Source of the DNA: a virus | Direction: 5' to 3' (one strand) | Virus record (IMG/VR): IMGVR_UViG_3300027734_000056 | Span: 10,061-74,060 of that record | Length of the DNA: 64,000 bases | Shown here: piece after piece, positions 22,948 to 39,615 of the stretch | Numbering within the stretch: the stretch's first letter is position 1 | Layout: every line of letters starts with the position of its first letter | Notes under the pieces: model-generated | Told to the model about the DNA's origin: nothing | Seen by the model: the letters and a program-made list of their open reading frames with translations, nothing else | The model's database searches: none | Position numbers and translations under genes: made by a program

Positions 22948-24012
22948 ATGGCGGCAAATAATTTAAAAGTAATTTATGATAATGTAATAGATTACTCAAC
23001 TACCACACTTTCAGCAGATAGTGTTGCAGGTGCATCTTATGCAGCAGCAAATCTTAAAAAAGACGCAAAAAGCCAAACTTGGCGCAGTACGGCAAAAACT
23101 GCTACCTTAACAGTTGGCTTTGGCTCAGGCACGTTTAGTGGATATATTACAGGTACAACGCTTGTAGTTACAACTGCACCTACCATTACACTAGCACCAA
23201 ATCAAGTTATCACAGGTGGTAGTATTGCAGCAGGTACTTACATTACAAGTTTTGGCACAGGTACTGGCGGTACGGGTAATTATGTAGTCAATACCAGTCA
23301 AACTGTGGGCAGTAGTGGCTCACCTATTACTGTAACTGCTGCAAATGCAAGGGTTTTAAGTGGTGTGCTACTGGCATTTACCAATTTAACTAGTACAGCT
23401 ACAATTACAACCACTGCCATAAATGTAATTGCAGGTGTAAACCCCAGCGCATTAGGTGCTGTACTGGCCAGGCCGTGGACAGACACAGCTTGGGACAGTA
23501 CATTTTTACCTGCCAACAGCAGCAGCTATAGTTATGGTGCTGGAAGCCATGCCAGAATCTGGTTTAGCAGCGACGTAACTTGTACGGGACTTACTATTTT
23601 AATAACTGATACGGCTAATAGTAACAGCTATCTAGAAGCAAGTAGGCTGATAGTAGGCAAGTCGTGGAGTCCAAAATACAATACAGAATTTGGCATAGAA
23701 GTTGGGGTAAAAGATTTAAGCAGTCAATCAAGAACTGAAAGCGGTGATTTAATTACCACCCGCGGTGTACGTTACAAAACTTTAAATTTCAACTTAAATT
23801 GGCTAACATACACTGACCGTACAACTTTTGTAAATTTACTAAAAACTAGTGGTTTAAGCAGGCCGCTGGCAGTTAGCTTATTTCCAAATAATAGTGACGA
23901 CTGGGATGCTGAAGGGTTATACCAAATATTTGGAAAATTAACAGATACAGCAGCTGTTACACATCCAATGTTTACTGTATACACAAGTTCAGTAAGCATA
24001 GAAGAAATATAA
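22948..24012 (+). CDS. Distal-tail (Dit)-like protein with an inserted Gly/Thr-rich module
   Basis: AANLK...TWRST N-terminus and YLEASRLIVG..WSPKYN..G..D.S...RTESG C-terminus; insert FSGYITGTTLVVT...GTGTGGTGNYVVNTSQTV; AGGA upstream. Confidence 0.55.
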   Translation: MAANNLKVIYDNVIDYSTTTLSADSVAGASYAAANLKKDAKSQTWRSTAKTATLTVGFGSGTFSGYITGTTLVVTTAPTITLAPNQVITGGSIAAGTYITSFGTGTGGTGNYVVNTSQTVGSSGSPITVTAANARVLSGVLLAFTNLTSTATITTTAINVIAGVNPSALGAVLARPWTDTAWDSTFLPANSSSYSYGAGSHARIWFSSDVTCTGLTILITDTANSNSYLEASRLIVGKSWSPKYNTEFGIEVGVKDLSSQSRTESGDLITTRGVRYKTLNFNLNWLTYTDRTTFVNLLKTSGLSRPLAVSLFPNNSDDWDAEGLYQIFGKLTDTAAVTHPMFTVYTSSVSIEEI

Positions 24013-24138: not shown

Positions 24139-24480
24139 ATGGAAATAACAGACCCATCAAATATATCCCAGTGGCTTACGGCAGCTTTTTTGGCTGTAGT
24201 TGGACTAGCTATGGGATTGCAAGTAGTAGTTAAAAACTGGAAAGCAAATAGTACAGAATCAGCTTTATTAAAGATGATGCATGATGAATTAGAACGTATG
24301 AGTGCGCAAAACTTAATACTAAGCCAAGAAATTGGCAAATTGCAAGCTGAACTAGTAAACTTAAGCAATCAACTTAGTGAATTAACTAGTGAAAATACTA
24401 AACTGCGTGTTGAAGTCAGCAACTTAAATACTGAAATTACCAGACTACATGGTATTATAAAAACAAAGGCGGTAGTATGA
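24139..24480 (+). CDS. Membrane-anchored coiled-coil protein
   Basis: N-terminal hydrophobic helix (WLTAAFLAVVGLAMGLQVVV) followed by a Leu heptad coiled coil; AAGGAG upstream. Confidence 0.7.
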   Translation: MEITDPSNISQWLTAAFLAVVGLAMGLQVVVKNWKANSTESALLKMMHDELERMSAQNLILSQEIGKLQAELVNLSNQLSELTSENTKLRVEVSNLNTEITRLHGIIKTKAVV

Positions 24481-25064
24481 CTGATGCAGTAAAAATAAAT
24501 TATAAAATTATGCAAGGCAATACTTTTTCAGAAACACTGCGCTGGGAAAGCGGTGAAAAAGTTTATAAGCCTATTACTGCAATAACACAAAGTGCACCAC
24601 TAACCCTTACTAGTACAGCACATGGTATTCCACCACAATGGCGTATTAAAATCAGCAACGTGGTAGGCATGACTGACATTAACAGCAGTGATATATATAG
24701 ACTGGGCGAACCTACTACAGCTAATGTAATAACTATTAATGACATTAACAGTGTAGGTTACCGTGCTTATACAAGCGGTGGTATACTAGAATACAATAAA
24801 CCTGTTGATATGACAGGGTATACTGCAAAAATGCAAATTAGACCAAATGTAGATAGTAGTACATTAATTTATGAAATGACTACTAGTAATGGCGGTGTTA
24901 CAATTGATAATACAAATAAAAAGATAACTTTATTTATTCCTGCAACTGTAACTAGTACATTTAATTTTACAACTGCAGTTTATGCACTTGAAATTTATGC
25001 AGGTACCACAAGCTTTGTGTTAATTTATGGCAGCATGGGATTAACCAAAGAGGTTGTAAAATGA
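24477..25064 (+). CDS. Side-fibre collar/anchor (T5 p132/LtfC-like) with an inserted module
   Basis: IMQGNTF...PVDMTGYTAKMQIR...AVYALEI beta-sandwich interrupted by ITAITQSAP..TAHG..ISNVVGMTDIN; directly upstream of the long fibre, as in T5. Confidence 0.65.
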   Translation: MTDAVKINYKIMQGNTFSETLRWESGEKVYKPITAITQSAPLTLTSTAHGIPPQWRIKISNVVGMTDINSSDIYRLGEPTTANVITINDINSVGYRAYTSGGILEYNKPVDMTGYTAKMQIRPNVDSSTLIYEMTTSNGGVTIDNTNKKITLFIPATVTSTFNFTTAVYALEIYAGTTSFVLIYGSMGLTKEVVK

Positions 25065-28000
25065 CAGAAATAGTAAAATTTGTTAATACTATAATTGTTG
25101 AAAATGCCGTAACCAGCGAAACTATTGTTAGTGGCGTGCAGGGACCACCAGGTGCAACAGGCCCACAAGGGCCTGCTGGCGTTGCAGGTACTGCAGGTGC
25201 ACCAGGTCCACAAGGCACTCCAGGTGCTGTATTAGTAAATTTAGCCAATAGTGTACAACTGCCAGTAAATTTAACTAGTGGTCAAGCGCTTTATAATTAT
25301 GCGCTAGGAGCCAGTACGGATTATGGTGACAGACTATTTATAGGTGTACCAAGTGGCAGCGGTGTTACTGGTGTGCTTGTTGGCGGAAAGTATTATACTG
25401 ATTTACTGGATACGGCCACTAGCTTGGCTACTGCTGGTATGCTTGTAAAAAGAGATAATACAGGCAAGCTAACAGGTGATATTACTGGTAACAGTGCCAC
25501 TGCTACAAAATTGTCCACAGCAAGAAGCATAAGTTTAGCTGGAGATGTGGCTGCTAGTGCAGTAAATTTTGACGGTACTACTAATATACAATTAAGTGCT
25601 GCACTTGCAACACAAACTGGTTTAACTACTGGTACTTATGGTAGTAGTACATTGGTACCTATAATAACTGTTAATAGTAAAGGTGTTATTACAGCTATTA
25701 GCACCCAAACTATAACTGGCGGTAGCAGTGGAAGCAGCACTTTATTATTGGGTGCAGATAATTCTAGTTATGGATCAGTGGTCAGCGGCAGCAGTTTACA
25801 AATATTAGGCGGAACTGGTATTACTACAAGTGCTGGTAATAATACTGTAACAATTGGTGTTAATAATAATATTGCCACAACCAGCGGCACCCAAACGCTT
25901 ACTAATAAAACTATTAGCACTAATAGTACTTGGGCAGGTAATACTATTAGTCAAAGCCGCGGCGGTACTGGAAGTACAACTGGTAGCATTGTTACAGATA
26001 GTGATTTAACTTTTGGTAGCGGTGGTACGCTTTACTTAAGTGCACAAACAATAGACGTTGGTGGTAGTAGTTTAACAAATTTAACAACACCACAGCAAGA
26101 TAGTGATGCAACTACCAAAGCTTACGTGGATGCACTTAAGCAAGGCTTGGATATAAAGGACTCAGTTAAAGTTGCTACTACAACTAATATTACGCTATAT
26201 GGGCAACAATCAATTGATGGTGTAAGCGTACTTGCTGGCCAGCGCGTATTAGTAAAAAATCAAACTAATGCTAGTGAAAATGGTATATGGAACGTAGATT
26301 ACCAATATTGGTATAGAAGTAGTGATGCTGATACTGATTTAAAAGTAACGGCAGGATTATTTACATTTGTAGAGCAGGGTACACAAAATGGTGGAAATGC
26401 CTTTACATTAATTACAACTGGCACAGTTACACTAGGTGTTACTGGTTTAACGTTTACACAGTTTAGTGGTGGCGGCACAGTGTTAGTTGGCAGCGGTTTA
26501 ACTAAAACTGGCAATACAATATCTGCAAATTTTAGTGGCAGCTATAATGATTTAATTAACAAACCAACTATACCAGCTGCACAAGTGCAGACTGATTGGA
26601 ATGCTACTAGTGGATTAGGTGTTATCCTAAACAAACCCGCACTATTTGATGGTAATTATAATAGCTTAACCAATAAACCTACACTATTTGATGGTAATTA
26701 TAATAGCTTAAGTAATAAACCTACCATACCAGCTGCACAAGTGCAGACTGATTGGAGTGCTACTAGTGGATTAGGTGTTATTCTAAACAAACCCACACTA
26801 TTTGATGGTAATTATAATAGCTTAACCAATAAACCTACACTATTTGATGGTAATTATAATAGCTTAAGTAATAAACCTACCATACCAGCTGCACAAGTAC
26901 AAAGTGATTGGGCAGCTGTAAGTGGGTTGGGTGTTATCCTAAACAAACCCACACTATTTGATGGTAATTATAATAGCTTAAGTAATAAACCAACTATACC
27001 AGCTGCACAAGTACAAACTGACTGGAATGCAACAACTGGTTTAGGTGCTATTTTAAATAAACCTAATTTTGTTGCGGTAGCTACTAGTGGCAATTATAAT
27101 GATTTAACTAATAAACCTACTCTATTCAGTGGCAACTATATAGACTTAACTAATAAACCAACAATACCAGATGCATATACACTACCAATAGCAACTACTA
27201 GTACACTAGGCGGTGTTAAAGTTGATGGCTCAACAATCACTATTAATAACGGAGTTATTAGTAGTTCAGGCGGTGGTGGTGGTGGTAGCGGTACTTCGGG
27301 AATTGATCATAAAACATATACAGCTACAGCTGGACAAACTACTTTTAATGTAGCATATACTATACCATATGTAAATGTATTTGTCAATGGTATTAGATTA
27401 TCTCCAGAAGACTATAGTGCAATTAATGGTACTAGCATAGTATTAACCGCTGCCTGCGCAATCAATGATATAGTTAATTTAGTTGGATTTAGTGCTTTAT
27501 CAATTACTACAGCCAATACAGCCGTAGCACTAGCAACTCCGCGAGCTATTAATGGTGTAAATTTTGACGGATCAACCGCAATCACTATAACAGCAGCAGC
27601 AAGTACATTAACTGGTACTACGTTGGCTAGCGGTGTAACAGCCAGCAGCCTTACTTCACTAGGTACTATTGCAACTGGTGTTTGGAATGGTTCAAGTATC
27701 AGCACAACTTATACAGATGCCAAAGTTACTAGTGTAAATGGTAGCACTGGTGCTATAGCTGGATTGGCAACTGAAACTTATGTTACTACGGCATTAAGCG
27801 CTAAAGTAAACACTTCTGCACTTGCAACTGTAGCTACCAGCGGCAGCTACACAGATTTAACAAATAGATTTACTGGCTATGACTATGAAATACACGTTAG
27901 TCAAGTAGACGGAAACGATACTACTGGTAATGGTGACTTGTTAAATCCAGTTGCCACGATTACCAAAGCAATGACTTTAGTAAGTACACAAAGAAGAAAA

Positions 28001-29530
28001 GTAATTGTTCACTCTGGCGGTTATACTGAAAACTTCACAATAGATTTATCTTATGTAACATTAACTACTGAAGCACAAAAAGGTGACGATGTTGTAATTA
28101 CTGGAACTATAACTGCAAACAAAGGCTGTACTATTTCAGGTTTAAAAATGACAAACCTGACGATTACAGCAGCTACAGGAACAGGAAGTGTAAACATACT
28201 TGGTTGTGATATTACCGGTACACTTACAAAAAGCGGTGCTGCCGACTATACTCTTATTCGTTTTTGCGATATTGGCACTACAAACATTACTGGTAGCGGT
28301 GGTTTAGTTGCCATATTTGGGGGTAATCCTAACTTCATTACAATCAATAATGCTGGAGCAAGGGTAATTGTTAAAAACGCTGTTACTGTTTCTCCAGTTT
28401 TAACTGCAGGAAACGCAAACTTTGTAGACAGCATATTACCAGCCATTGCAGTCCAATGGGTTTCTGGTACAACTTATGCTGTTGGTAATTATGTTTTCAA
28501 TTCAGGTTTTACTTATCTTCGTATAATTGCTGGTGCTGGTACTACTGCTCCTGCTTCTGATACTGCCAATTGGTTAGTTCAGACTCCATTAAATGGTATC
28601 GACACTAGAAATGCTATAACTACTGCTCCCGGAACTATTGTTACCTTAGCTAATAGTCAATTTATTGTACCAACATATAACAATGTTGCCAGAGTTTCAT
28701 TAAGTGGTTTCTACTCAATTTTCAACTGTGTATATGACAAGCCAAACTCAACTTTGGCGGCATCGTCAGCAAGTGGCGGGTCAACTAATTCTGTTGATTA
28801 TTTTCAGTACATTAATGCTGATAGATTGATACTGGCAACAGGTGGTCAGATTACATTTCCAGACGGCAGTGTTCAAAATACAGCAGTACCTACTTATTCA
28901 ATAACAACTGCTGCAGCAAGTGCTAGTGGCAGTTTAAGCTTAACTGGTAATACATTTACATTTACTCCACCTGTAATACCTACAGTACCTACTTATTCAA
29001 TAACAACTGCTGCAGCAAGTGGCAGTGGCAGTTTAAGTTTAAGTGGCAGTACATTTACATTTACTCCATATGCTTTAGCTCAAGCAACTACTAGTACACT
29101 AGGCGGTGTTAAAGTTGATGGCTCAACAATTACTATTGATGCTGCTACTGGTGTTATTAGTAGTTCAAGTGGAGGTGGTAGTGGAACTACTTATTCAATA
29201 ACAACTGCTGCAGCAAGTGGTAGTGGCAGTTTAAGTTTAACTGGCAGTACATTTACATTTACTCCACCTGTAATACCTACAGTACCTACTTATTCAATAA
29301 CAACTGCTGCAGCAAGTGGCAGTGGCAGTTTAAGTTTAAGTGGCAATACATTTACATTTACTCCATATGCTTTAGCTCAAGCAACTACTAGTACACTAGG
29401 CGGTGTTAAAGTTGATGGCTCAACAATTACTATTAATGCTGCTACTGGTGTTATTAGTAGTTCAGGTGGAGGTGGTGGTAGTGGAGTTACTACTGGCAAG
29501 GCTATTGCAATGGCCATAGTATTTGGATAA
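25061..29530 (+). CDS. Long side tail fibre
   Basis: 1489 aa with collagen-like GPPGATGPQGPAG, ATATKL.TAR.I, DATTKAYVD, NKP tandem repeats and LGGVKVDG repeats; beta-helix-like segment (VSQVDGNDTTGNG..NPVATITKA); C-terminus AIAMAIVFG. Confidence 0.85.
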   Translation: MTEIVKFVNTIIVENAVTSETIVSGVQGPPGATGPQGPAGVAGTAGAPGPQGTPGAVLVNLANSVQLPVNLTSGQALYNYALGASTDYGDRLFIGVPSGSGVTGVLVGGKYYTDLLDTATSLATAGMLVKRDNTGKLTGDITGNSATATKLSTARSISLAGDVAASAVNFDGTTNIQLSAALATQTGLTTGTYGSSTLVPIITVNSKGVITAISTQTITGGSSGSSTLLLGADNSSYGSVVSGSSLQILGGTGITTSAGNNTVTIGVNNNIATTSGTQTLTNKTISTNSTWAGNTISQSRGGTGSTTGSIVTDSDLTFGSGGTLYLSAQTIDVGGSSLTNLTTPQQDSDATTKAYVDALKQGLDIKDSVKVATTTNITLYGQQSIDGVSVLAGQRVLVKNQTNASENGIWNVDYQYWYRSSDADTDLKVTAGLFTFVEQGTQNGGNAFTLITTGTVTLGVTGLTFTQFSGGGTVLVGSGLTKTGNTISANFSGSYNDLINKPTIPAAQVQTDWNATSGLGVILNKPALFDGNYNSLTNKPTLFDGNYNSLSNKPTIPAAQVQTDWSATSGLGVILNKPTLFDGNYNSLTNKPTLFDGNYNSLSNKPTIPAAQVQSDWAAVSGLGVILNKPTLFDGNYNSLSNKPTIPAAQVQTDWNATTGLGAILNKPNFVAVATSGNYNDLTNKPTLFSGNYIDLTNKPTIPDAYTLPIATTSTLGGVKVDGSTITINNGVISSSGGGGGGSGTSGIDHKTYTATAGQTTFNVAYTIPYVNVFVNGIRLSPEDYSAINGTSIVLTAACAINDIVNLVGFSALSITTANTAVALATPRAINGVNFDGSTAITITAAASTLTGTTLASGVTASSLTSLGTIATGVWNGSSISTTYTDAKVTSVNGSTGAIAGLATETYVTTALSAKVNTSALATVATSGSYTDLTNRFTGYDYEIHVSQVDGNDTTGNGDLLNPVATITKAMTLVSTQRRKVIVHSGGYTENFTIDLSYVTLTTEAQKGDDVVITGTITANKGCTISGLKMTNLTITAATGTGSVNILGCDITGTLTKSGAADYTLIRFCDIGTTNITGSGGLVAIFGGNPNFITINNAGARVIVKNAVTVSPVLTAGNANFVDSILPAIAVQWVSGTTYAVGNYVFNSGFTYLRIIAGAGTTAPASDTANWLVQTPLNGIDTRNAITTAPGTIVTLANSQFIVPTYNNVARVSLSGFYSIFNCVYDKPNSTLAASSASGGSTNSVDYFQYINADRLILATGGQITFPDGSVQNTAVPTYSITTAAASASGSLSLTGNTFTFTPPVIPTVPTYSITTAAASGSGSLSLSGSTFTFTPYALAQATTSTLGGVKVDGSTITIDAATGVISSSSGGGSGTTYSITTAAASGSGSLSLTGSTFTFTPPVIPTVPTYSITTAAASGSGSLSLSGNTFTFTPYALAQATTSTLGGVKVDGSTITINAATGVISSSGGGGGSGVTTGKAIAMAIVFG
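26540..27170 (+). repeat. Coding tandem array of 72-nt (A) and 42-nt (B) units, order ABBABBABA
   Basis: A = TIPAAQVQ(T/S)DWxAxxGLGxILNKP; B = (T/A)LFDGNYNSL(T/S)NKP. Near-identical at DNA level. Confidence 0.9.
28891..29484 (+). repeat. 297-bp direct duplication containing 99-bp sub-repeats
   Basis: TACTTATTCAATAACAACTGCTGCAGCAAGTG occurs at 28891, 28990, 29188 and 29287. Confidence 0.9.
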
Positions 29531-29540
29531 GGAATAAAAA

Positions 29541-29903
29541 ATGGCAAATCCCAACATAGTAAACGTAGCAAATATTTATGGTAAAATAGCAGGTTTGGCA
29601 GTTACTACAACTGCTAGTGCTATTGTTTCAAATACCACAGGCTCAGGCAAAATTTTAAAAATTAACTCTTTAATTATCGCAAATGTAAACGGAACAAGTA
29701 GTGCTGACGTTACAGTTGATGTATTTAAAAATCAAACTACTAGTTATCGTGTAGCATTTACCATTACTGTGCCTAACGACGCTACTTTAGTAGTAATATC
29801 AAAAGATAGTAGTATATATCTAGAAGAAAATGATTCTTTAAGAATATTAGCAAGCGCTAACTCTTATTTAGAAGCTATATGCAGTTACGAGGAAATTAGC
29901 TAA
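29541..29903 (+). CDS. Small fibre adaptor-like beta-sandwich protein
   Basis: 120 aa, MANPNIVNV...IYLEENDSLR...SYEEIS; AAGGA upstream; immediately follows the fibre. Confidence 0.65.
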   Translation: MANPNIVNVANIYGKIAGLAVTTTASAIVSNTTGSGKILKINSLIIANVNGTSSADVTVDVFKNQTTSYRVAFTITVPNDATLVVISKDSSIYLEENDSLRILASANSYLEAICSYEEIS

Positions 29904-30331
29904 TGACTTTTAACTACTTTGATAATAAAAGCATACTAGGTAAAAACACAAAACAAGTTGTTAAAGGAATTAGTAGTTTAAGTTCAGAGCAAGGTGGTGC
30001 AATTACGTTTATTAGCAGCTCCAGTCCTTTTACTGATAACATTACTGGCACTAGTCAAGTTACAACACAAGGTTCAGTTAGTATTATTTATGAAGTAGGT
30101 GGAATTGTAACGCTTAACTGGAGGCTTGATACAAGCAGCGAACCCAGCTATGATTTTGGCACGTTAGTATTAAATGGTATTCAGTTGGCTCGTATAAGTG
30201 GTAATCCTAATTCTCAAAGTGGATCTATACAAATGCCTTCAGGAACAAATACGTTAAATCTTATTTACACTAAAGACGATACTGTTGATGTTGGCTCGGA
30301 TAACACAACAGCGTTTTGGTCGTTTACGTAA
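29903..30331 (+). CDS. Small putative receptor-binding / lectin-like protein
   Basis: 142 aa; jelly-roll-like W.LDTSSE.SYDF...L.YTKD.TV..GSD segment; TAATG coupling. Confidence 0.5.
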   Translation: MTFNYFDNKSILGKNTKQVVKGISSLSSEQGGAITFISSSSPFTDNITGTSQVTTQGSVSIIYEVGGIVTLNWRLDTSSEPSYDFGTLVLNGIQLARISGNPNSQSGSIQMPSGTNTLNLIYTKDDTVDVGSDNTTAFWSFT

Positions 30332-30347
30332 ACAAACAGGAAATAAA

Positions 30348-33300
30348 ATGATTAGAAACGGCGGAAAACTTACTAAAATTCGTTATACTACATCAAGCTC
30401 TAATACTGCAGGAGCAACGGGTATTTATGACACCTTTGACGCTTATAATGCACGTCTTTCTGATCTTTGGCCAGTTCTGCCAACTTTTTCATCTAACGTA
30501 ACTGCTAGCACTAGTACTATTTATCATAATGGCAATGGTGTTACAATAACTAATACTAGTAAAAATATTACTGCTAACACTACTTTATACTACACAATAG
30601 AAACAGTTAGCGGTCCTTCTGGTAGTTTTACGGGCACTGGTCCTTATAATAATCAACAGTACGGAACATTTACGCAACCCGCTGGCGTAACTGGTATTGC
30701 TAGTTTTTCTATATATCCAGTTGCAGATCAGGAACCTGACCCTACCCGTCAACCAGTTCAATTTAAAGTTAATATACGCACTACCAGTATAACTGGGCCT
30801 ATAGTTGGTAGTAGTCCAGTTATTACTATACCTACGCCTATACCTACGCTAAGTTTTGTACCTTATCTTAGTAGTGTAACACAGTTTGACGAAACTCAGT
30901 CTGGATGGAATTTAAAGCTTACTTGGGCTAATGTAGGTACTGCAAATCCTGTATCACAAATAAATTATAACATAACTTATTCTGGAACTGCAACAACTCA
31001 AGATTTACTAACAACAGTTGCAACTATGTCAACTGTTCTAGACAGTTATAGTTACGATGCAACTAGTGCTTATATTTACGGTAAAAAAGACTACTTAACT
31101 GAAGGCACAGAATCTTTAACTATGACTGTAACAAGTCCGTCGTATGGCTGGACGATAGGCACTATAAGCGCAAATATTATAGATACTAGTATTACACCTG
31201 TAACTACAATTACACCTTCAAAAACTGCAGTTGAAAAAGGTACAACTATACGCTTTGATGTTGCTATTCAAAATGCTCAAGAAACTACTATTTATTATGT
31301 TATCACAGGTAGTGCCGCCAGTAAATTTAGCGCTCAAACTGGCAATTTTTTATTAAGTGCAGGCGGAATTACTTTAACTGTTATAAATAACTTTAACTAT
31401 AGCGAAGCAGACACCACTTTTCAAGTACAGTTTCGTGCACAAAGTACTAGTGGCTACTTATACGGCACATCACAAGTTATTACTGTAACAAGTCCAGCAC
31501 AACCAAGCGCAACCATTGTACCTATAGCTAGCATGAACGAAGACACAACAAATAGTTTTGTTGTAAATACCACAAACTATAGTGGAAATCTAGACTGGAA
31601 AATACAAGAAATAAAAAGTGGATCAGTTTTAACAACACCAGTACCAACTGATTTTTTAAACGCTACTAGTGGTACTATAACTGTTGTTAATGGTGGAAGT
31701 GATACAATTGCAGTAAAACCGCGTGCTGATACATTTACTGAAGGCTCAGAAACTTTTAGGTTAACTGTATCAGTACCCAATGGTGGCGGAACTTTAAGCA
31801 CTTCAGATTTTACAATTAATGACACGTCAACAGGTACTACAGAACTGTTAGATTTATATAGTTTTTTAAGTTTTAAATTTCTAAGTGGTGCGGATGACAT
31901 TAATTATGTTAGTGGAATTACTGCAAATAAAACAGGCGACTCATTATCAACACTTCTTAGTAAATATAATACCACAACATATCCTTGGCTAAACAATACC
32001 AGTTACTATAATGTAGTTACTGCTGGAATACAATTGTGGACTGTTCCTTTTACTGGAGTATACCGCTTTAAAGTAGCGGGTGCTAGAGGTGGCGGATGGT
32101 ATTATGCTACATTACCTGGTGGCTGGGGTGCAACATTAAATGGCGAGGTATTTTTAACCAGAGGCACTGTGTTAAGTATTGTAGTAGGAAAAGCTGGTTC
32201 TTCATCTACAACTACAGGTTCTGGTGGCGGTGGTGGCGGTGGTACTTTTGTTTATACAGGCAGCATTGGCGGTACAGGTTTGTTGTTTGCTGCAGGTGGT
32301 GGTGGTGGTTCAGATGATGATGGAGCTACTGCTGGTCAAAATGCTCGTGAAGATTTATGTGCTGGATTTAATGCTACTAGTGTAAGAGCTGATCCCACAA
32401 ATGGACAGGGTGCTGCACTTGCGGGAAGCGGTGGTGGAAGTGGTACTGGTTGGCTAAGTGACAGCACCGGCACCAGTGCTGGCACTAGATTTCTAGGAGG
32501 CGACGCTGTTGCGCCTTGTGGCTGTGGTGGTTTTGGCGGTGGTGGTGGTGACATAGACGATGGCGCTGGCGGTGGTGGATATACTGGTGGAACTAGTAGT
32601 AATCTTCCAGCTGGTGGATGTGGTGGTTCTTATTATAATCCTCAACGTGTAAACAACTATAGTTGGGGAGGTACAAATCAAGTGGATAGAATTGCCAATG
32701 GTTTTGTAGAAATAACTGCAATTACCACAGGAGCTACTGCGGTAATTACCCCTAGTTCTAGTACTATAACAGAAGGACAGAGTGTAGCTTTTAATATAGT
32801 AACTACTGGTTTTGTAACTGGCACGCTTTATTATTATTTGTTAACTAATACTGGAAGTATAAGTACTACTGAGTTTTCTAATACTACTAATACTCTTGCT
32901 GGAAGTGTAACAATAACAGACAGCACTGGACAAGTAACTTATACATATAGAAATGATGGCTATACTGAAGGATCAGAAGCTGTTAGTTTATTGGTTTACT
33001 ATAACACTGGCGGTATTAGGTACACAATGGGTACTTCTAGTCAAGTAACAATTAGTGATAGTTCTACAGGGGCAGCTACTCAATTTACTAGAAGTGATTT
33101 TATACAGCCTATTGTTGGCAATATTTATTATGAAGTTCGATCTCCATCAGCATCTGGAGCTACTAATCTAGGGGCTCTGGGTTGGACTATTTTACGTGAT
33201 ACAACTACTGCTACAGCTGATAGTTACTTTTCAGTACCACTACCTTTTACATTTAAAATTAATAATACCAATTTTACTGATGTAATTGTTAACGAAAATG

Positions 33301-33773
33301 GCTGGATAGTTTTTGGTACTACAGGCGAAATTCTTAGTGCTGGCTTTATTAGTTCAACAGCTGCAAGTGCTCTTCCTCGAAATAAATTTGTTTTTAGCGG
33401 CGGCGGCAATAACAGCATGCAACGGCTGTTTTACAGAGTTGATGGGCAAAATAGGTTTGTAATTATCAGATATGAAGGTAATGCATCAACTTCAGGAACT
33501 CATGGCACTCCAGGAATAATTGCAGAAATTAAACTTTTTAATCCACAATTTACAGGTGGAATATCTATGATAGAGTTAAATTTTCAGACTAACAGAGCAA
33601 CTGGAACCCATCCAATATCAATTTCAAATTCCAGTGCATACTTTACTACTAGAGCTTATAGTTCATCTAGTTATCAATTTAGTACAGTTTTTTATGCTGA
33701 CAATGCTGAAGCAACAAGCTGGTCTGCTCTTGGTATGACATACAATGGTGATAATTATGGTGTGATTTTATAG
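30348..33773 (+). CDS. Large adhesin with Calx-beta-like repeats and a glycine-rich domain
   Basis: Start at ATG 30348 after AGGA. Repeated D..TEG.E motifs; GIQLWTVP.TG.Y....GARGG...GGGGGTFV...AAGGGGG Gly-rich domain. Confidence 0.7.
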   Translation: MIRNGGKLTKIRYTTSSSNTAGATGIYDTFDAYNARLSDLWPVLPTFSSNVTASTSTIYHNGNGVTITNTSKNITANTTLYYTIETVSGPSGSFTGTGPYNNQQYGTFTQPAGVTGIASFSIYPVADQEPDPTRQPVQFKVNIRTTSITGPIVGSSPVITIPTPIPTLSFVPYLSSVTQFDETQSGWNLKLTWANVGTANPVSQINYNITYSGTATTQDLLTTVATMSTVLDSYSYDATSAYIYGKKDYLTEGTESLTMTVTSPSYGWTIGTISANIIDTSITPVTTITPSKTAVEKGTTIRFDVAIQNAQETTIYYVITGSAASKFSAQTGNFLLSAGGITLTVINNFNYSEADTTFQVQFRAQSTSGYLYGTSQVITVTSPAQPSATIVPIASMNEDTTNSFVVNTTNYSGNLDWKIQEIKSGSVLTTPVPTDFLNATSGTITVVNGGSDTIAVKPRADTFTEGSETFRLTVSVPNGGGTLSTSDFTINDTSTGTTELLDLYSFLSFKFLSGADDINYVSGITANKTGDSLSTLLSKYNTTTYPWLNNTSYYNVVTAGIQLWTVPFTGVYRFKVAGARGGGWYYATLPGGWGATLNGEVFLTRGTVLSIVVGKAGSSSTTTGSGGGGGGGTFVYTGSIGGTGLLFAAGGGGGSDDDGATAGQNAREDLCAGFNATSVRADPTNGQGAALAGSGGGSGTGWLSDSTGTSAGTRFLGGDAVAPCGCGGFGGGGGDIDDGAGGGGYTGGTSSNLPAGGCGGSYYNPQRVNNYSWGGTNQVDRIANGFVEITAITTGATAVITPSSSTITEGQSVAFNIVTTGFVTGTLYYYLLTNTGSISTTEFSNTTNTLAGSVTITDSTGQVTYTYRNDGYTEGSEAVSLLVYYNTGGIRYTMGTSSQVTISDSSTGAATQFTRSDFIQPIVGNIYYEVRSPSASGATNLGALGWTILRDTTTATADSYFSVPLPFTFKINNTNFTDVIVNENGWIVFGTTGEILSAGFISSTAASALPRNKFVFSGGGNNSMQRLFYRVDGQNRFVIIRYEGNASTSGTHGTPGIIAEIKLFNPQFTGGISMIELNFQTNRATGTHPISISNSSAYFTTRAYSSSSYQFSTVFYADNAEATSWSALGMTYNGDNYGVIL

Positions 33774-33785
33774 GAAAAATAAATT

Positions 33786-34223
33786 ATGTTATACTCACAT
33801 AACCAACAAACTCCTGGCCTTTTACCAGACAGAATAAGATTGTCAACAGGTTTAACTAAAACTGATAAAAGTACTTTTACTGCACAAGAACTTTTAGATG
33901 CAGGGTATATACCTGCAGATGTTCCTCCTGCTTACAACCCTAATCAACAACATTTAGTCTGGGATAAAACAACTTGGAAATTGATTGATTTTACAGCAGA
34001 AGAGCTAGCCGCTAGGATAGAATTAGAATGGAAAGGCGTACGTGCTCTTCGGAACAAATTTATACTTGATGTAGAGTGGAAAATATCTCGTGCACTAAGT
34101 CAGCAAAGAATGGGTTTGCCTGTTACTGACAATATTGCCGCTTTAGATAATTATATACAAGCACTGCGAGACATAACCAATCAAAGTGATCCTTATAATG
34201 TTATATGGCCCACACTTGAGTAG
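33786..34223 (+). CDS. Tail fibre assembly chaperone
   Basis: W..VR..RN.......W......YIQALRDIT.Q..P.NV.WP motif typical of fibre chaperones. Confidence 0.75.
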   Translation: MLYSHNQQTPGLLPDRIRLSTGLTKTDKSTFTAQELLDAGYIPADVPPAYNPNQQHLVWDKTTWKLIDFTAEELAARIELEWKGVRALRNKFILDVEWKISRALSQQRMGLPVTDNIAALDNYIQALRDITNQSDPYNVIWPTLE

Positions 34224-34271
34224 CCATATCAAATAAAAATTTAAGTTTAAAGGTACAAAGGATGCTTAAAC

Positions 34272-34670
34272 ATGACTACTAATAGAAATTTATCATTACT
34301 GGCACCTAATGTAGACGCTTTTGGTATACTTAAAGCTGGCGGCTATATTTTACCAACAGCAAGTACTAGTGTACTAGGCGGTGTTAAAGTTGATGGCACA
34401 ACAATTACTATAAATAATGGTGTAATTAGCGGTAGCAATAGTTATACTTTACCAACAGCAACTACTGGTACACTAGGCGGTGTTAAAGTTGATGGCACAA
34501 CAATTACTATAAATAATGGTGTGATTAGCGGCAGCACCAGTTTAACTGCAACTGGTGTAACTGCAGCAACTTACACTAATGCAACGTTAACTGTAAATAG
34601 TTACGGACAAGTTACTGCAGCCAATAATGGCATAGATCCAATAGCTGCAGCTTTTATTTTTGGTGAATAA
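34272..34670 (+). CDS. Mini tail-fibre / linker protein
   Basis: 132 aa; two 33-aa LPTA....LGGVKVDGTTITINNGVISG repeats; TY...TVNSYG.VT motif; C-terminus IAAAFIFGE resembles the long-fibre end. Confidence 0.7.
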   Translation: MTTNRNLSLLAPNVDAFGILKAGGYILPTASTSVLGGVKVDGTTITINNGVISGSNSYTLPTATTGTLGGVKVDGTTITINNGVISGSTSLTATGVTAATYTNATLTVNSYGQVTAANNGIDPIAAAFIFGE

Positions 34671-34671
34671 A

Positions 34672-36045
34672 ATGGCAAATAAATCAATAATTAAATCTGC
34701 TAGTGCCATAGGAAATAACACATTATATACTCATACCGATAGTACGCCTTTACTAATATCTACTAGTAATTTTAAAGTTAGTATTCCAAGTTATGCAACT
34801 TATTCTACAGATTTTGGAGTTTACTGCACTTTATATTTAGCAAAAAAACAAGCAGACGGTACTTATATTAATATAAAATTAGATCATACTATGTTTGCAG
34901 GTCAAAAAATGGTTGGAGCTGATGAATATTCCGCAGGTACTAAATATACCATAATAGGCTATAATGAAGCTGCCTATTATGCAGTTTCTACTATTTTTTC
35001 TGGTAGTTATCCAGCTTATTCTAATGTTATCCCCAATTATTATGTTAGCTGGCTTACTGGGTATACAATTTATGATTATGCAGTTGGCAAAGGTAAATTA
35101 ACTATAAGTTCTGGAGATTATATCTATTGCACAATTGCTGGAACTAATGCAGGTGGACTAGTAATTTTTACTGCAATAATTACAGCAACAACTTTACCAC
35201 AAAACCGTACATATAAAGCAACATTATTTAAAGGTTATTGGGGTTCTGGCGGCAATTATCAAAAAAATGACACTGTTATTAATGACAGTCATTTATATAT
35301 GGCTATACAAGCTAATAGTGCTTCAACTATAACTACCGATAATTGGGTATTAATTAAAAATAATGCAGCAGTTATAAAAGCTTTAACGCTATCAGATTTA
35401 ACTACCGCTTCTGGTAAACTAAGTCCACTTGTTAAAGAAACTCTTAATGTATCAAGTACCCTATCTAATAAACTTTTTGTTAATGTTTGTGTAACTGACA
35501 GTTTTGGCCCCGCCAGCACTAGTACCACTATTTCAATACCACCCATATCAACTAATGTTACTTTAGCTCTAGCAACAAATACACAAACATTACGTAATAA
35601 ATATTTTTATAATAACGGGCTTAGGGATAACACGTGGAGAAGTAATAATACTTTTAATTTTTCTGGTCAAACTGTAAACCTTAATCCTAACAGCTTTACT
35701 AAGCTTTCCAGTTATGTGTTACTTACGCCAGTAACAAAAACTTTAACAACTGGTACAAATAATATACTTCTTAACAATACAGGCGGTATTAATTTTGTAT
35801 GTCAAACCACAACAACAGCTGCAGATAGTTTTTCTATTGTTTTACCTAGTGCAAGCAGTTACGCTGGATATTTTATAATATTTTTTATAAAAATGTTAGC
35901 AGCAAATCAAACTGTAAGTTTTTCTACAGTTAAAACTAGTAGAAGTTTTAGTGCTAGTACTACAGCTAATCTTACAGACAAGTATCAATTAGTATGTGAT
36001 GGCTACAATTGGTATTGTATACAAGTAAATAAAGGTATATCATAA
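34672..36045 (+). CDS. Fibre adaptor/fibre protein (paralog 1)
   Basis: ATG 34672 lies 1 bp after the previous stop; CBM5/12-like FKGYW....Y..ND.V....Y.A segment; C-terminal TAN.TD.Y....DG.NWY....KG. Confidence 0.6.
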   Translation: MANKSIIKSASAIGNNTLYTHTDSTPLLISTSNFKVSIPSYATYSTDFGVYCTLYLAKKQADGTYINIKLDHTMFAGQKMVGADEYSAGTKYTIIGYNEAAYYAVSTIFSGSYPAYSNVIPNYYVSWLTGYTIYDYAVGKGKLTISSGDYIYCTIAGTNAGGLVIFTAIITATTLPQNRTYKATLFKGYWGSGGNYQKNDTVINDSHLYMAIQANSASTITTDNWVLIKNNAAVIKALTLSDLTTASGKLSPLVKETLNVSSTLSNKLFVNVCVTDSFGPASTSTTISIPPISTNVTLALATNTQTLRNKYFYNNGLRDNTWRSNNTFNFSGQTVNLNPNSFTKLSSYVLLTPVTKTLTTGTNNILLNNTGGINFVCQTTTTAADSFSIVLPSASSYAGYFIIFFIKMLAANQTVSFSTVKTSRSFSASTTANLTDKYQLVCDGYNWYCIQVNKGIS

Positions 36046-36047
36046 TT

Positions 36048-37178
36048 ATGGCAATTATTACAAGATCATTTAAAATTACCAGTACTACTTTACAGGATGT
36101 ATTTACAGCTGATACAGATGTAACAATAATTGGGTTTGTTAAAAGTAATACAGCAGGAAATATATTCACAAGACTATTTGATAGTACAGGTACTGCGTAT
36201 GATCTAACAACTGTTAATTCTGGTACTAATACTACAAAAATAACACTTTTTTTGCCACAAGGCAGTATAGTTAGATATAGTAGCATTTATGCAACTGTTA
36301 GTGCTCCAGATTATCTTAATATAACTTATTATTATGAAGATAGTTCAACTGATACAATAAATGCGGTAGGCATATGGAACACTAGTACTACATATGCAAG
36401 AAATAGTATAGTTTATAGAGATACTAATAGTACTAGTTATATAGCCAATATTACTAATACAAATAAACCTCCTGAAAGTAGTTTAGGCTATTGGCAAATA
36501 CTTGCTGGACAAAATGTTGGTTTAAATATTACTTTAACTAGTGAATTAACTAGTGATACTACGGGATTTTTAACAGGAGCTACTACTGCTCTTGGTATAG
36601 CATCAACTTTAACAAATAAAACTTTAGCAGGAATCACACGTTTTAGTAACGATAGATTTTATGATTCTACAAATACTTACTATTACCAACTACCTACTGG
36701 TAATGGTGGTACCCTTGTTGATACAGATAGTGCACAAACCCTAACCAGTAAAACACTTGAAAATTGTACTATATATAATGCAACTCTTCAGTCTCCTATA
36801 AATTTTACCGCTGGCAGTATACTAAGTTTATCCAATAGTTATATTCGTGATAGCGTTCAGACATTTGATAGCAGTTATTTTATTAGTAATAATTTTAGTT
36901 GGAGTAATCAAATACAAGGTATTACAAAACTTACTACTCCAGCTACCGCAGGTGCAGTATTATCAATTACTTTACCAGGAGTAAGCCAATATAATTCTGG
37001 TGCAAGCGGTTTAATTTTTATTACTATGGGTGCTGCCACTCAAACAATTAGTTGGCCAAATGTAAAATTAGCTGGCAGCGTAACAGCTAGCCAAACTGCA
37101 AATGCCATAGATATATATAGTGTTATCAATGATGGCACTTATTGGTACTTAACATTACTAGATAAAGGTTTTGTATGA
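36048..37178 (+). CDS. Fibre adaptor/fibre protein (paralog 2)
   Basis: Same architecture as 34672-36045: VGIWNTSTTYARNSIV, QTLTSKT, C-terminal TANAIDIY....DGTYWY....KGFV. Confidence 0.6.
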   Translation: MAIITRSFKITSTTLQDVFTADTDVTIIGFVKSNTAGNIFTRLFDSTGTAYDLTTVNSGTNTTKITLFLPQGSIVRYSSIYATVSAPDYLNITYYYEDSSTDTINAVGIWNTSTTYARNSIVYRDTNSTSYIANITNTNKPPESSLGYWQILAGQNVGLNITLTSELTSDTTGFLTGATTALGIASTLTNKTLAGITRFSNDRFYDSTNTYYYQLPTGNGGTLVDTDSAQTLTSKTLENCTIYNATLQSPINFTAGSILSLSNSYIRDSVQTFDSSYFISNNFSWSNQIQGITKLTTPATAGAVLSITLPGVSQYNSGASGLIFITMGAATQTISWPNVKLAGSVTASQTANAIDIYSVINDGTYWYLTLLDKGFV

Positions 37179-38971
37179 GTTTTGCTGTTTTAAAATTTGC
37201 AAGGTCTCAATATTTACGAGATAATACTGGTGTTTTTGTACCATCAGATGCTTATTGGAGTTATGTAATAGCATTAGTACGAACAAATCCAGAATGTACA
37301 AATTTAACGTCTTATTCTGGATCACGCACACTTCTTACTAGTTCCATAAATGACACTAGCAGCCCAAATTCTGCATATTTAAATGGTTATAGTAGCCAGA
37401 TGTGGTTTTTATCCCCTAATAGTCCATATACTACTAATTATCCAAGTACCGATAGTGTATACTCTTTATCACAAAATGGTTATCACTTATCTACTGGTAT
37501 TAATAATTATGCAAAAATTGCGTATTCCAATGCTGGTTATCCTGAATCACCTGGTAGTGAATTATCACAGTATAATTATAATCTTATTCAACCTACTTAT
37601 AATCAAATACAGATGGACAGCTATCTTGATATAGGTGTTGCTATAAAAAATGGTTTTACTCTTGAATGTTGGGTATATGTACCCACAACTGGTATTTCAA
37701 CTCTTAGTGGTTTTTTACTTGGTGCTCAACACAGTGTGTTTTTATTTGTAAATAGTAATCTTACTGTAAATGTACAATATTCGCCTTTTTATAATACTAC
37801 TTCTTCTGTTACTCCTGCTGGCGTTGATGAGTATGGTAGTTCATACCCAGCCAGTTACAAAACCTCTAACAGCAGTGTAAATTTATGGGATTATACTAGC
37901 AGCGCAACTTTAACAGCAGGTAGTTGGAATCATGTAGCTGTAACTTGTAGTTATACACCTCAAATGGGTGCTAATACTGGCAGCACAAATTTATTTATTA
38001 ACGGCACTAGGGCAGGGCAACTACTAAATCCCACAGTATCAACAGGAGTTACGGGTGTACGAACATATTCAATTTCTGCAGACACACTTAAAAATGTAGT
38101 AATTATAGGCAGTAAACTTGAAATAACAGGTATAAGATTTATAGCAGGAAATTGTTTAAGTATAGATAGTTTTACACGACCAACTTCAAAAGTATCAAGT
38201 AATGTAATTGGTTGGAATAATAATACTAGTACTTTTACACATACTGCTTGTTTTGTAACCCATTTTAGTAATAATGGGAAAAATGTACCACTTATTGATT
38301 ATAGTCCTTATAGACATTATGTTACAGCTAGTACGGGGGCATACTATATTGAACAAAGTAGCAGTTTACCTAATATATCTAATGCTACTACAAATTTAAA
38401 AAGTATATATTTTAATGGAACTACTACCCCTACCGTTGGGTTAATGCAAAACCCTCAACAACAACTTTTAAATACAACCAATAGTGTTTTAGGTTTCTTG
38501 AATGGTCAAAATTTGACAATAAACCTTTTCTTTTATAGAACTGCTTATAGTAATGACTACATATTTGATCACGGCTCAATAGCATTATATGTTACTGGCA
38601 CTCAACTTAATCTTAGACTTAGCAATAATAGTAGTCTTTATATATCTTTAGCCGCAGGTAGTGCAAATACTGGCACTTGGTATTATGTTCAACTTAGCAG
38701 AACTAATAACGGTACTAGCAAAACATTCAAATTAACAGCAATAGATCAGTATGGAACTGTATATTCGGGTACTGATTATACTCATGCTAGTAGAGGCGGA
38801 GATGTAGCTTATGCTCCAACTGTATCACAACTATTTATTGGCAGTGATTATCTTAGTAGTGCTGCAACTATTTTAAATGGAAACATAGTTGACTACAGGG
38901 TTACTGCTGGCATAGTTAGACCTACACCCACTACTTTTCCAAATTTTCATCCAACAGTGGCACCTACATAA
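37175..38971 (+). CDS. LamG/concanavalin-like receptor-binding protein
   Basis: Two LamG-like units (FTLECWVY...WNHVAV...LFINGT; TINLFFY...TWYYVQLSR...GNIVDYRVT); SDAYWSYV N-terminus; ATGA overlap. Confidence 0.75.
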   Translation: MSFAVLKFARSQYLRDNTGVFVPSDAYWSYVIALVRTNPECTNLTSYSGSRTLLTSSINDTSSPNSAYLNGYSSQMWFLSPNSPYTTNYPSTDSVYSLSQNGYHLSTGINNYAKIAYSNAGYPESPGSELSQYNYNLIQPTYNQIQMDSYLDIGVAIKNGFTLECWVYVPTTGISTLSGFLLGAQHSVFLFVNSNLTVNVQYSPFYNTTSSVTPAGVDEYGSSYPASYKTSNSSVNLWDYTSSATLTAGSWNHVAVTCSYTPQMGANTGSTNLFINGTRAGQLLNPTVSTGVTGVRTYSISADTLKNVVIIGSKLEITGIRFIAGNCLSIDSFTRPTSKVSSNVIGWNNNTSTFTHTACFVTHFSNNGKNVPLIDYSPYRHYVTASTGAYYIEQSSSLPNISNATTNLKSIYFNGTTTPTVGLMQNPQQQLLNTTNSVLGFLNGQNLTINLFFYRTAYSNDYIFDHGSIALYVTGTQLNLRLSNNSSLYISLAAGSANTGTWYYVQLSRTNNGTSKTFKLTAIDQYGTVYSGTDYTHASRGGDVAYAPTVSQLFIGSDYLSSAATILNGNIVDYRVTAGIVRPTPTTFPNFHPTVAPT

Positions 38972-38972
38972 A

Positions 38973-39242
38973 ATGACAGTTTACGCAAAATTACTACAAA
39001 ATAGGTTGGTACTTATTACTGACCAAATACAGGTTAATGATCCTGATAATCCTCAATGGGTTCAATTTGACTATTCTCAAATGCAGCCACAAATTGGTGA
39101 TTATTATGATTTTTATACCAATACTTTTTCAAGTGTTAGTGCTAGTAGAAAAAAATATTCAAGTGCTTTTCAAGCAACTAGCATGGACGATAGTACTTTA
39201 CAATATCAAACCAGAGTTATAGGCAAACCAAATGGTACATAA
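38973..39242 (+). CDS. Small hypothetical protein, possibly a fibre chaperone
   Basis: 89 aa; YA.L...PQIGDYYD...F motif; follows the LamG gene. Confidence 0.5.
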   Translation: MTVYAKLLQNRLVLITDQIQVNDPDNPQWVQFDYSQMQPQIGDYYDFYTNTFSSVSASRKKYSSAFQATSMDDSTLQYQTRVIGKPNGT

Positions 39243-39615
39243 ACAAATTATATTAGTAAGCAATTTGTGGGTTAAACAAATGCATTTTGAAGAAGTTGGT
39301 GATGTTATGACTGGGCACAGTCATAAGTTTGATCACCCCACTTTAATTGCCAAAGGCAGTGTGTCTGTAAAAGTAAATGATAAAACTACTACGTTTACTG
39401 CGCCACATATAGTTTACATTGCAAAAGATCAACTTCACGAAATTACTGCTTTAGAAGCAGATACAGTAGCTTATTGTATTCATCCAATACGCGGTGAACG
39501 CCAAGAAGATATTTATGATCATTCGCAAGTGCCAGCAGGTATAACTGTTCGTGACTGGAATATTTTAAATACTCCAGAGCTTTCCAAAAAGTTTGATGAG
39601 GCACAAGATGCCTGA
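39232..39615 (+). CDS. Cupin-domain protein
   Basis: GHSHKFDH.T....G.V.V...F.AP..V.I.....H.ITALE...CIH cupin metal-binding pattern. Confidence 0.8.
   Translation: MVHKQIILVSNLWVKQMHFEEVGDVMTGHSHKFDHPTLIAKGSVSVKVNDKTTTFTAPHIVYIAKDQLHEITALEADTVAYCIHPIRGERQEDIYDHSQVPAGITVRDWNILNTPELSKKFDEAQDA

Follow-up and report, generated by a model that had tools for sequence, protein, structure and literature searches.

Candidate modular side fibre in a siphovirus, built from separately encoded parts that may join through short conserved termini

How can a tail fibre that is encoded piecewise, in several genes, hold its parts together and still exchange its host-binding tips? The question is raised by 11 genes in a viral DNA of 64,000 nucleotides (nt), bases 10061-74060 of the 74-kb IMG/VR virus record IMGVR_UViG_3300027734_000056, whose completeness is estimated at 70%. 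This whole stretch is referred to as the window; its genes are named by g and their start coordinate in it (for example, g25061), and related loci by L numbers. The original prediction read the 11 genes as two parallel modules of a branched fibre, linked by short docking termini. All 11 open reading frames (ORFs) are present on the plus strand at the predicted positions (Table 1), and translation confirmed the fibre end AIAMAIVFG, the mini-fibre end IAAAFIFGE, and the MAN starts. Our analysis suggests that the region probably encodes a modular side fibre made of separately encoded pieces that are joined by short conserved termini. Its module 1 is one case of a widespread, unannotated gene grammar, in which a fibre with a C-terminal plug is followed by an adaptor called MAN, 1 to 3 tips, and a chaperone.

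The long fibre g25061 has a collagen-like start, followed by repeats, an embedded region that the original prediction took for a beta-helix, a glycine linker, and the C-terminal plug. Its end conforms to the plug pattern [ST]GK[AS]IA[ML][AS][IM][VI]FG plus 0-2 residues, and a position-specific scoring matrix (PSSM) of the plug ranked it best among the 66 window ORFs, at 44.9 bits. Each fibre has one plug, located at the C-terminus. In a sequence comparison with PDB chains, g25061 matched nothing except one capsid decoration protein. The gene for MAN, g29541, follows after a gap of 10 nt. Two kinds of internal duplication were observed in the fibre genes. A 99-nt repeat (family D3), whose product reads Y.LP.ATTSTLGGVKVDGSTITI, has three copies in the long fibre and two in the mini-fibre of module 2 (27176-27274, 29069-29167, 29366-29464, and 34344-34541); the copies are 70-91% identical and contain an identical core of about 25 nt. 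The long fibre also contains a 293-nt tandem duplication with 97% identity (28890-29479).

The pairing of plug and MAN was counted in IMG/VR, GenBank phages, and GTDB contigs, with a pair defined as a plug within -30 to +60 nt of MAN. Gene adjacency in other genomes had been proposed as a check of the predicted motif pairs, and it was borne out for this one: over the three collections, 206 of 232 MAN domains were paired with a plug. The unpaired domains mostly lie at contig ends, follow variant tails, or are separated from the fibre by an inserted gene. When the 80 best MAN loci were inspected, the upstream ORF ended in the plug pattern in about 70, whatever the rest of the protein. Conversely, a degenerate DNA pattern of the plug matched at least 120 stretches in IMG/VR. 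All of the 80 matches examined were located at most 2 residues from a stop codon, and MA[NAT]PNIV came next in about 73 of the 76 with downstream sequence. The same order was found in 30 loci on GTDB contigs, including a prophage in a complete Hyphomicrobium chromosome. In 154 non-redundant pairs, the plug has the consensus T-G-K-A-I-A-M-A-I-V-F-G and either ends there or continues with G, F, or L.

MAN relatives are encoded on at least 570 IMG/VR stretches. Among cultured phages, the pair is carried by the Pelagibacter podophage HTVC033P (gp66/gp65), an HMO-2011-type podovirus (PMC9038755), and by S-SKS1 and Bellamy of Synechococcus; DSL-LC04, assembled from a metagenome, has it too. In these carriers, MAN is annotated as "hypothetical" or "putative lectin", and Pfam, PHROG, and NCBIfam have no model of the family. 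In two loci (L131 and L027), an extra gene, which in L131 is a 177-aa ORF, separates the plug-bearing fibre from MAN and may be a mobile insertion.

A junction of this kind could also be conserved as DNA, serving only in recombination, as a linker for module swapping, and not in protein docking. Recombination at conserved motifs is known for fibre genes, both flanks of plug-MAN are swapped between relatives, and the fibre and mini-fibre have in common the repeat with the identical core described above. However, in 132 distinct junctions, positions 1 and 2 of the codons for the plug and the first nine MAN residues are 92% identical, compared with 47% for position 3. Every synonymous codon is in use, and the spacer between plug and MAN varies from 0 to 42 nt with unrelated sequences. 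These features indicate that selection acts on the peptides and not on the DNA. The linker explanation, which we regard as extremely improbable, was rejected on the codon evidence.

The flanks behave differently from the junction. Where two MAN proteins agree at 80-90% of positions, median identity falls to 33% over the 60 residues that precede the plug and to 31% over residues 1-120 encoded by the following gene, values near the background of 25%. The plug-MAN pair is a conserved island, with sequence swapped freely on either side. Proteins with a plug vary in length from about 50 to 1,900 residues, and their N-terminal anchors are of several unrelated types. The varied anchors and the common plug fit a single shared distal joint that would be mounted on different virions.

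AlphaFold2 predicted MAN, from an alignment of 101 sequences, as an eight-stranded jelly-roll with a predicted local distance difference test (pLDDT) score of 93.9. Residues 1-11 are the sole unstructured part and also the most conserved stretch of the protein. Solved structural relatives include KHP30/40 trimeric cement proteins, Ena spore-appendage subunits, turret jelly-rolls, nucleoplasmin, and the Sf6 knob. About 200 structural matches with E up to 0.001 were found in BFVD; those listed are mostly 100-130 aa long, and a few are named "virion structural protein" (S-TIM5, MaMV-DC, and S-SCSM1). By sequence, MAN had no match in the PDB, either as a single sequence or as a profile. Searches of Pfam, PHROGs, and NCBIfam with MAN, g29903, g34672, and g36048 gave no significant match, MAN having a sub-threshold match to a gene transfer agent (GTA) head-spike fibre (E = 0.007).

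Natural fusions were found in a survey of longer MAN-containing proteins. A fusion of MAN to LamG through a proline-rich linker occurs on 7 contigs; one such protein (P0089) was sought in IMG/VR and not found. In another protein (P0106), a short typical fibre runs straight into MAN and lacks precisely the plug and the spacer. Many longer MAN proteins have a domain of about 105 aa inserted in a loop, and one has a much larger insertion. These fusions are consistent with a structural, exposed adaptor that is physically tied to fibre and tips. The inserted domain of the common variant (P0049, P0056, and P0066, 225-228 aa; also in L089) follows about residue 33 and has an H..F..H and YYC..H..M pattern with a cupredoxin-like look.

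The fusions bear on the possibility that MAN is a non-structural assembly chaperone, which would stay outside the virion and recognise the fibre C-terminal peptide for trimerisation, as Tfa/gp38-type helpers do. The MAN gene lies directly 3' of the fibre gene, the usual spot for tail-fibre assembly genes, its partner motif is the fibre C-terminus, and a literature search found no proteomics for the family. Yet MAN is fused to LamG tips and bears inserted domains, as expected for an exposed structural part, and structural relatives of it are annotated as virion proteins. Moreover, the cassette has its own chaperone with a Phage_tail_APC-like end, and MAN exceeds every other gene of the region in conservation while its neighbours are swapped, unlike chaperones that co-vary with their partners. 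We consider a chaperone role for MAN improbable.

A second conserved terminus lies on the other side of MAN. The gene after MAN often begins with a leader, with the consensus MARRYNGGIIG..ASGVWSL..WP. A simple pattern for its first part was found in 89 of 163 first genes after MAN and in 9 of 971 upstream genes (55% versus 0.9%). In the window, residues 3-46 of g30348 (nt 30354-30485) match a hidden Markov model (HMM) of the leader at E = 1.3e-10, and no other window protein does; the position of the leader supports the ATG at 30348 as the start. This putative tip is a mosaic. Over the C-terminal 720 aa it has 65% identity to the tip of L002, and over the N-terminal part 32% identity to the tips of L006 and L010. 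The small protein g29903 shows a weak likeness, in position and start, to the product encoded directly after MAN in L002, L007, and L051, the nearest relatives. The order of the window, namely MAN, tip 1, tip 2, and chaperone, recurs in L002, L003, L005, L006, L007, L010, and L051, where tip 1 starts with MGFYT.. or MTFNY.., tip 2 with M[KR]RNSG.., and the chaperone with M.LYS[YH]... Judged by these patterns, the N-terminal tip leader is a second layer of the putative code, one that the original prediction had overlooked. A literature search found the motif strings of plug, MAN, and leader in no paper.

The leader also bears on an alternative in which MAN, as a lectin acting in trans, would be the distal receptor-binding knob, and the downstream "tips" would be independent fibres or spikes docking elsewhere. 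MAN is annotated as "putative lectin" in DSL-LC04 and S-CBWM1, its fold is similar to that of trimeric knobs and of the BC2L-C N-terminal lectin, and the inserted domains of some members could bind ligands. Against this, the gene after MAN has a conserved leader that is rare elsewhere, and the MAN-LamG fusions connect MAN to tips. In addition, phages of Pelagibacter, Synechococcus, Gammaproteobacteria, and many phyla of metagenome-assembled genomes (MAGs) have MAN proteins with 40-90% conservation, which is unlike a determinant of host specificity. A knob of this kind seems quite improbable to us.

Module 1 is closed by g33786, a probable tail-fibre chaperone. It matches the chaperone family PF16778 just below the cut-off (26.2 versus 26.6 bits, E = 7e-6), the PHROG "tail fiber assembly" at E = 8e-6, and an HMM built from the chaperones of related cassettes at E = 2e-58; this family is carried by 24 related loci. 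The other domain labels of the original prediction were likewise recovered as borderline matches only, the glycine-rich domain of g30348 as ALK_LTK_GRD (E = 9e-4) and the LamG-like domain of g37175 as PF13385 (26.5 bits, cut-off 27.6; E = 8e-6).

We propose that the long fibre combines a virion-specific N-terminus, a variable shaft, and a glycine linker with a 12-residue hydrophobic plug at its end. The plug would bind MAN, which would probably form a trimer that caps the trimeric fibre. MAN would in turn hold the tip g30348, and probably g29903, through the conserved N-terminal leader, and g33786 would aid their folding. MAN would thereby act as a universal adaptor through which fibres of any phage type could bear interchangeable, fast-evolving adhesins. 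From the comparisons above, the grammar, present in hundreds of phages from water, probably lets any fibre carry interchangeable host-binding tips. Comparative evidence makes docking in module 1 well supported as a prediction: the original proposal that short termini act as joints is upheld for plug and MAN by adjacency, protein-level selection, and swapped flanks. The docking motifs that it extended to g36048, g37175, g38973, and g33786 were not supported. The contacts and the stoichiometry are inferred, and the different tips may sit on one fibre, which would then be branched as originally predicted, or on different fibres. A broader reading is tentative, and we hold it with slightly less than even confidence: plug, jelly-roll socket, and adhesin leader may form a previously undescribed, portable docking code, common to podoviruses, siphoviruses, and prophages of many aquatic bacterial phyla, by which any shaft could display any adhesins. 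The code would be part of a wider family of joints between hydrophobic tails and jelly-rolls that chain fibre segments, as in S-SKS1.

Several results weigh against this picture. No homologues of g29903 were found, and the leader HMM did not match it. The plug-less fusion of fibre and MAN is weak evidence, found on one contig only. The fold search with MAN returned only generic jelly-rolls, with a best Z of 9.2 and no informative functional relative, and the label "virion structural protein" is carried only by its distant structural relatives. A surrogate fold was obtained by reading L005 through its in-frame stops under genetic code table 6, which gave an artificial chain of plug, 13-residue linker, and MAN. 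In this chain, the plug was modelled as a helix at a pLDDT of about 61 and was not confidently packed on MAN. The model of a single chain argues neither for nor against docking in a trimer.

Table 1. Features of the fibre region, with positions in the window
Feature	Position	Strand	Description	Basis
g24477	24477-25064	+	Virion structural protein, 195 aa	PDB 26dk chain M and phrog_1084
g25061	25061-29530	+	Long fibre, 1489 aa	ORF; tail-fibre PHROGs (phrog_9729, E = 2e-48)
Plug	29492-29527	+	Last 12 residues of g25061, TGKAIAMAIVFG	Translation; PSSM
g29541	29541-29903	+	MAN adaptor (putative), 120 aa, starts MANPNIVNV	Family HMM, E = 6.5e-51
g29903	29903-30331	+	Small tip candidate, 142 aa, starts MTFNY..ILG	Position and start; weak
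g30348	30348-33773	+	Putative large mosaic tip/adhesin, 1141 aa	Leader HMM; ALK_LTK_GRD
g33786	33786-34223	+	Probable tail-fibre assembly chaperone, closes module 1	PF16778, PHROG, family HMM
g34272	34272-34670	+	Mini-fibre, 132 aa, two LGGVKVDG repeats	Translation; repeats
Mini-fibre tail	34635-34667	+	Hydrophobic tail DPIAAAFIFGE	Translation
g34672	34672-36045	+	Fibre/tip protein, 457 aa, starts MANKSIIKS	Syntenic in L205; rare family
g36048	36048-37178	+	Paralogue of g34672 lacking its first ~70 residues, 376 aa	E = 3e-20
g37175	37175-38971	+	Putative LamG-like tip, 598 aa	PF13385; syntenic in L205
g38973	38973-39242	+	Small protein, 89 aa	ORF

Module 2 had been predicted to run parallel to module 1, with g34672 and g36048 as paralogous adaptor-fibres. 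The two proteins are indeed paralogues (25.5% identity over 388 aa), and the LGGVKVDG repeat is common to the mini-fibre and the long fibre (E = 1e-13). A relation of g34672 and g36048 to MAN was not found: the MAN HMM matched neither, and hhalign gave the g34672 family a probability of 5.6% against MAN and 36% against non-canonical MAN-like jelly-rolls. The mini-fibre tail scored -14 bits on the plug PSSM. By these comparisons, module 2 is not a second canonical plug-MAN cassette, and the predicted parallel with module 1 is only partial.

Module 2 is also rare. About 11 full-length relatives of g34672 were found among 1.84 billion representatives. Searches with peptide patterns found none from a single sequence, none in the four records nearest by MAN, and one locus when the patterns were derived from an alignment. 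The synteny rests on one close relative, L205, which keeps the series of a mini-fibre ending DPMTTAFIFGG, a protein starting MANKTIIK.., its paralogue, and a LamG protein. The small protein g38973 has no family match and is missing from L205. Language-model features of residues 1-100 of g36048 resemble those of stand-alone viral proteins of about 100 aa (score 0.91), which serves as a lead only.

Other proteins of about 100-118 aa in the related loci are MAN homologues, and an HMM built from them alone matches g29541 at E = 4.5e-10. Each of these non-canonical homologues is directly preceded by an ORF with a differing hydrophobic tail (for example, DPVVMAIALG, DPNIFLLMGA, NPLIIALG, or TPFILALGGD). 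The tail of the mini-fibre can be placed in this broader class of hydrophobic ends found before MAN-like jelly-rolls. Two jelly-roll joints in series were observed in S-SKS1 (L083, 1-8363; gp12-gp11-gp10-gp9). There, the 114-aa jelly-roll gp11 comes after gp12, whose end is NPLIIALG, and MAN (gp9) comes after the 1,727-aa gp10, whose end is PIMMGMIF; two tips, a chaperone, and one more tip complete the series.

Module 2 might nevertheless be an unrelated second fibre, whose hydrophobic ..FG end and MAN.. start resemble module 1 by coincidence. MAN is a common protein start, no MAN homology was detected in g34672 or g36048, the exact tail pattern of the mini-fibre has no other match in IMG/VR, and the g34672 family is very rare. 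On the other hand, the two patterns are each very rare and yet stand together at one junction: a hydrophobic-FG C-terminus was found in 0 of about 1,650 other ORFs in related loci, and the start MA[NAT]x[NST][IV][IV] in 2 of 1,782 N-termini, one of which belongs to a second MAN copy. Both patterns were partly shaped after the data were seen. The tail (DP, a hydrophobic run, and G) also fits those before other MAN-like jelly-rolls, the joint is kept in L205, and the hhalign probability is higher for the non-canonical jelly-rolls than for MAN. We consider it unlikely that the joint arose by chance, and an unrelated second fibre appears doubtful to us, although this retains more than a trace of credibility. 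We prefer to see module 2 (mini-fibre, g34672, g36048, and the LamG protein) as a second, much rarer series, whose first joint, DPIAAAFIFGE followed by MANKSII.., may be a divergent form of the same kind of joint. Docking at this first joint is plausible.

Several phage systems resemble the proposed assembly in part. CBA120 and G7C have branched tailspike complexes, in which several receptor-binding proteins are placed on one scaffold through conserved terminal domains. Their tailspikes join by N-terminal T4 gp10-like domains, and no such domains were detected here in Pfam and PHROG searches. The T4-type long tail fibre (gp34-gp35-gp36-gp37) and the gp38 adhesin of T2/S16 (PMC12032242, PMC6957217) are similar in their separately encoded segments arranged end to end, in a separate and often glycine-rich tip adhesin on a trimeric fibre, and in dedicated chaperones. 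No sequence relation to these proteins was found in the Pfam and PHROG searches of the window. Two further differences are the conserved 120-aa jelly-roll adaptor between shaft and adhesins, and a joint consisting of a 12-residue C-terminal peptide that is kept across podo- and siphoviruses and prophages.

The docking code had also been presented as new for T5-like phages. This does not stand as worded: branched lateral tail fibres formed by LtfA/LtfB have been published for the T5-like phages DT57C and DT571/2 (PMC4728585, PMC10713586), with another mechanism, and the phage of the window is only distantly T5-like. Shared features are the siphovirus type, the pb6-type tail tube, and, as predicted here, more than one receptor-binding protein on side fibres; the published description that was compared makes no mention of a C-terminal plug, a jelly-roll adaptor, or a tip leader. 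The podophages GP4, VP1, and A1002 have chain-like "bead-on-rope" fibres (PMC13730344), in which small beta-rich proteins dock onto a short peptide segment, in A1002 by beta-sheet augmentation. In those phages many dimers occupy repeated sites of a rope protein, whereas here each fibre chain has one plug at its extreme C-terminus. Their entries are not among the listed structural matches of MAN. Subunits of the Bacillus Ena endospore appendages (PDB 7a02 and 9i0y) are among the best structural matches of MAN (Z 8.4-8.6); they too are jelly-rolls, about 110 aa long, whose N-terminal connector arm is free. They have no sequence relation to MAN and polymerise into pili through disulfide-linked arms; MAN, in contrast, lacks such arm cysteines and is present in one copy per cassette. 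Multi-protein fibres with terminal joints are thus already established, and by sequence the plug, MAN, and leader match none of the systems compared.

Receptor-binding proteins of marine and freshwater phages mostly lack annotation. As simple sequence marks, plug, MAN, and leader can flag candidate fibres, adaptors, and adhesins in hundreds of uncultured genomes and so point to host-range genes, including those of abundant pelagiphages and cyanophages. If the pair is a real non-covalent connector, it would explain the movement of adhesins between unrelated phage types and would offer a compact natural plug-in system for fixing binding domains to the fibres of model phages. For structural biologists, plug-MAN is a defined small complex to solve.

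Upstream of the long fibre, residues 7-186 of g24477, the putative collar protein of the original prediction, match chain M of PDB 26dk ("Structural protein") at E = 4e-30, and the protein matches phrog_1084 at E = 6e-20. Homologues precede the fibre in L002 and L093. A literature search for "26DK" found no paper. A sequence comparison of g24477 with solved entries of the T5 tail tip, taken to E = 1, gave no match to a chain of the collar protein p132; the pb6 chains of those entries do match the tail tube protein of the window (T5 pb6, E = 1e-15). The phage is a siphovirus that is T5-like only distantly. The pb6-related tail tube protein, two tail chaperones, a 2,730-aa tape measure protein, and large tip proteins are encoded 5' of the fibre region, and an endolysin and spanins 3' of it. 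A DNA search of GenBank phages found no near-identical or close relative of the window.

Some neighbouring genes deserve mention. A 354-aa protein 5' of the fibre region (22948-24012) has an end, ..SSVSIEEI, that recalls the last strand of the MAN family (..CSYEEIS, ..SYLEIT); its matches to MAN-family HMMs were below significance. Between the tail-tip genes and the fibre module, a 113-aa protein (24139-24480) has an N-terminal membrane-like helix and a coiled coil, with weak PHROG matches to an Rz-like spanin. Directly after the fibre region lies a small cupin of 127 aa (39232-39615; AraC_binding PF02311, E = 1e-5, above the cut-off), and a gene for a 2OG-Fe(II) oxygenase stands after the tips in many related cassettes, among them HTVC033P, DSL-LC04, and numerous IMG/VR loci. 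These neighbours hint at enzymatic modification of fibre proteins. Finally, the GTDB contig CAIPNE010000714.1 (L208, 149.6 kb), binned as a lake Gammaproteobacteria MAG, encodes a MAN 73% identical to that of the window and may be a related phage genome that gives a hint of the host.

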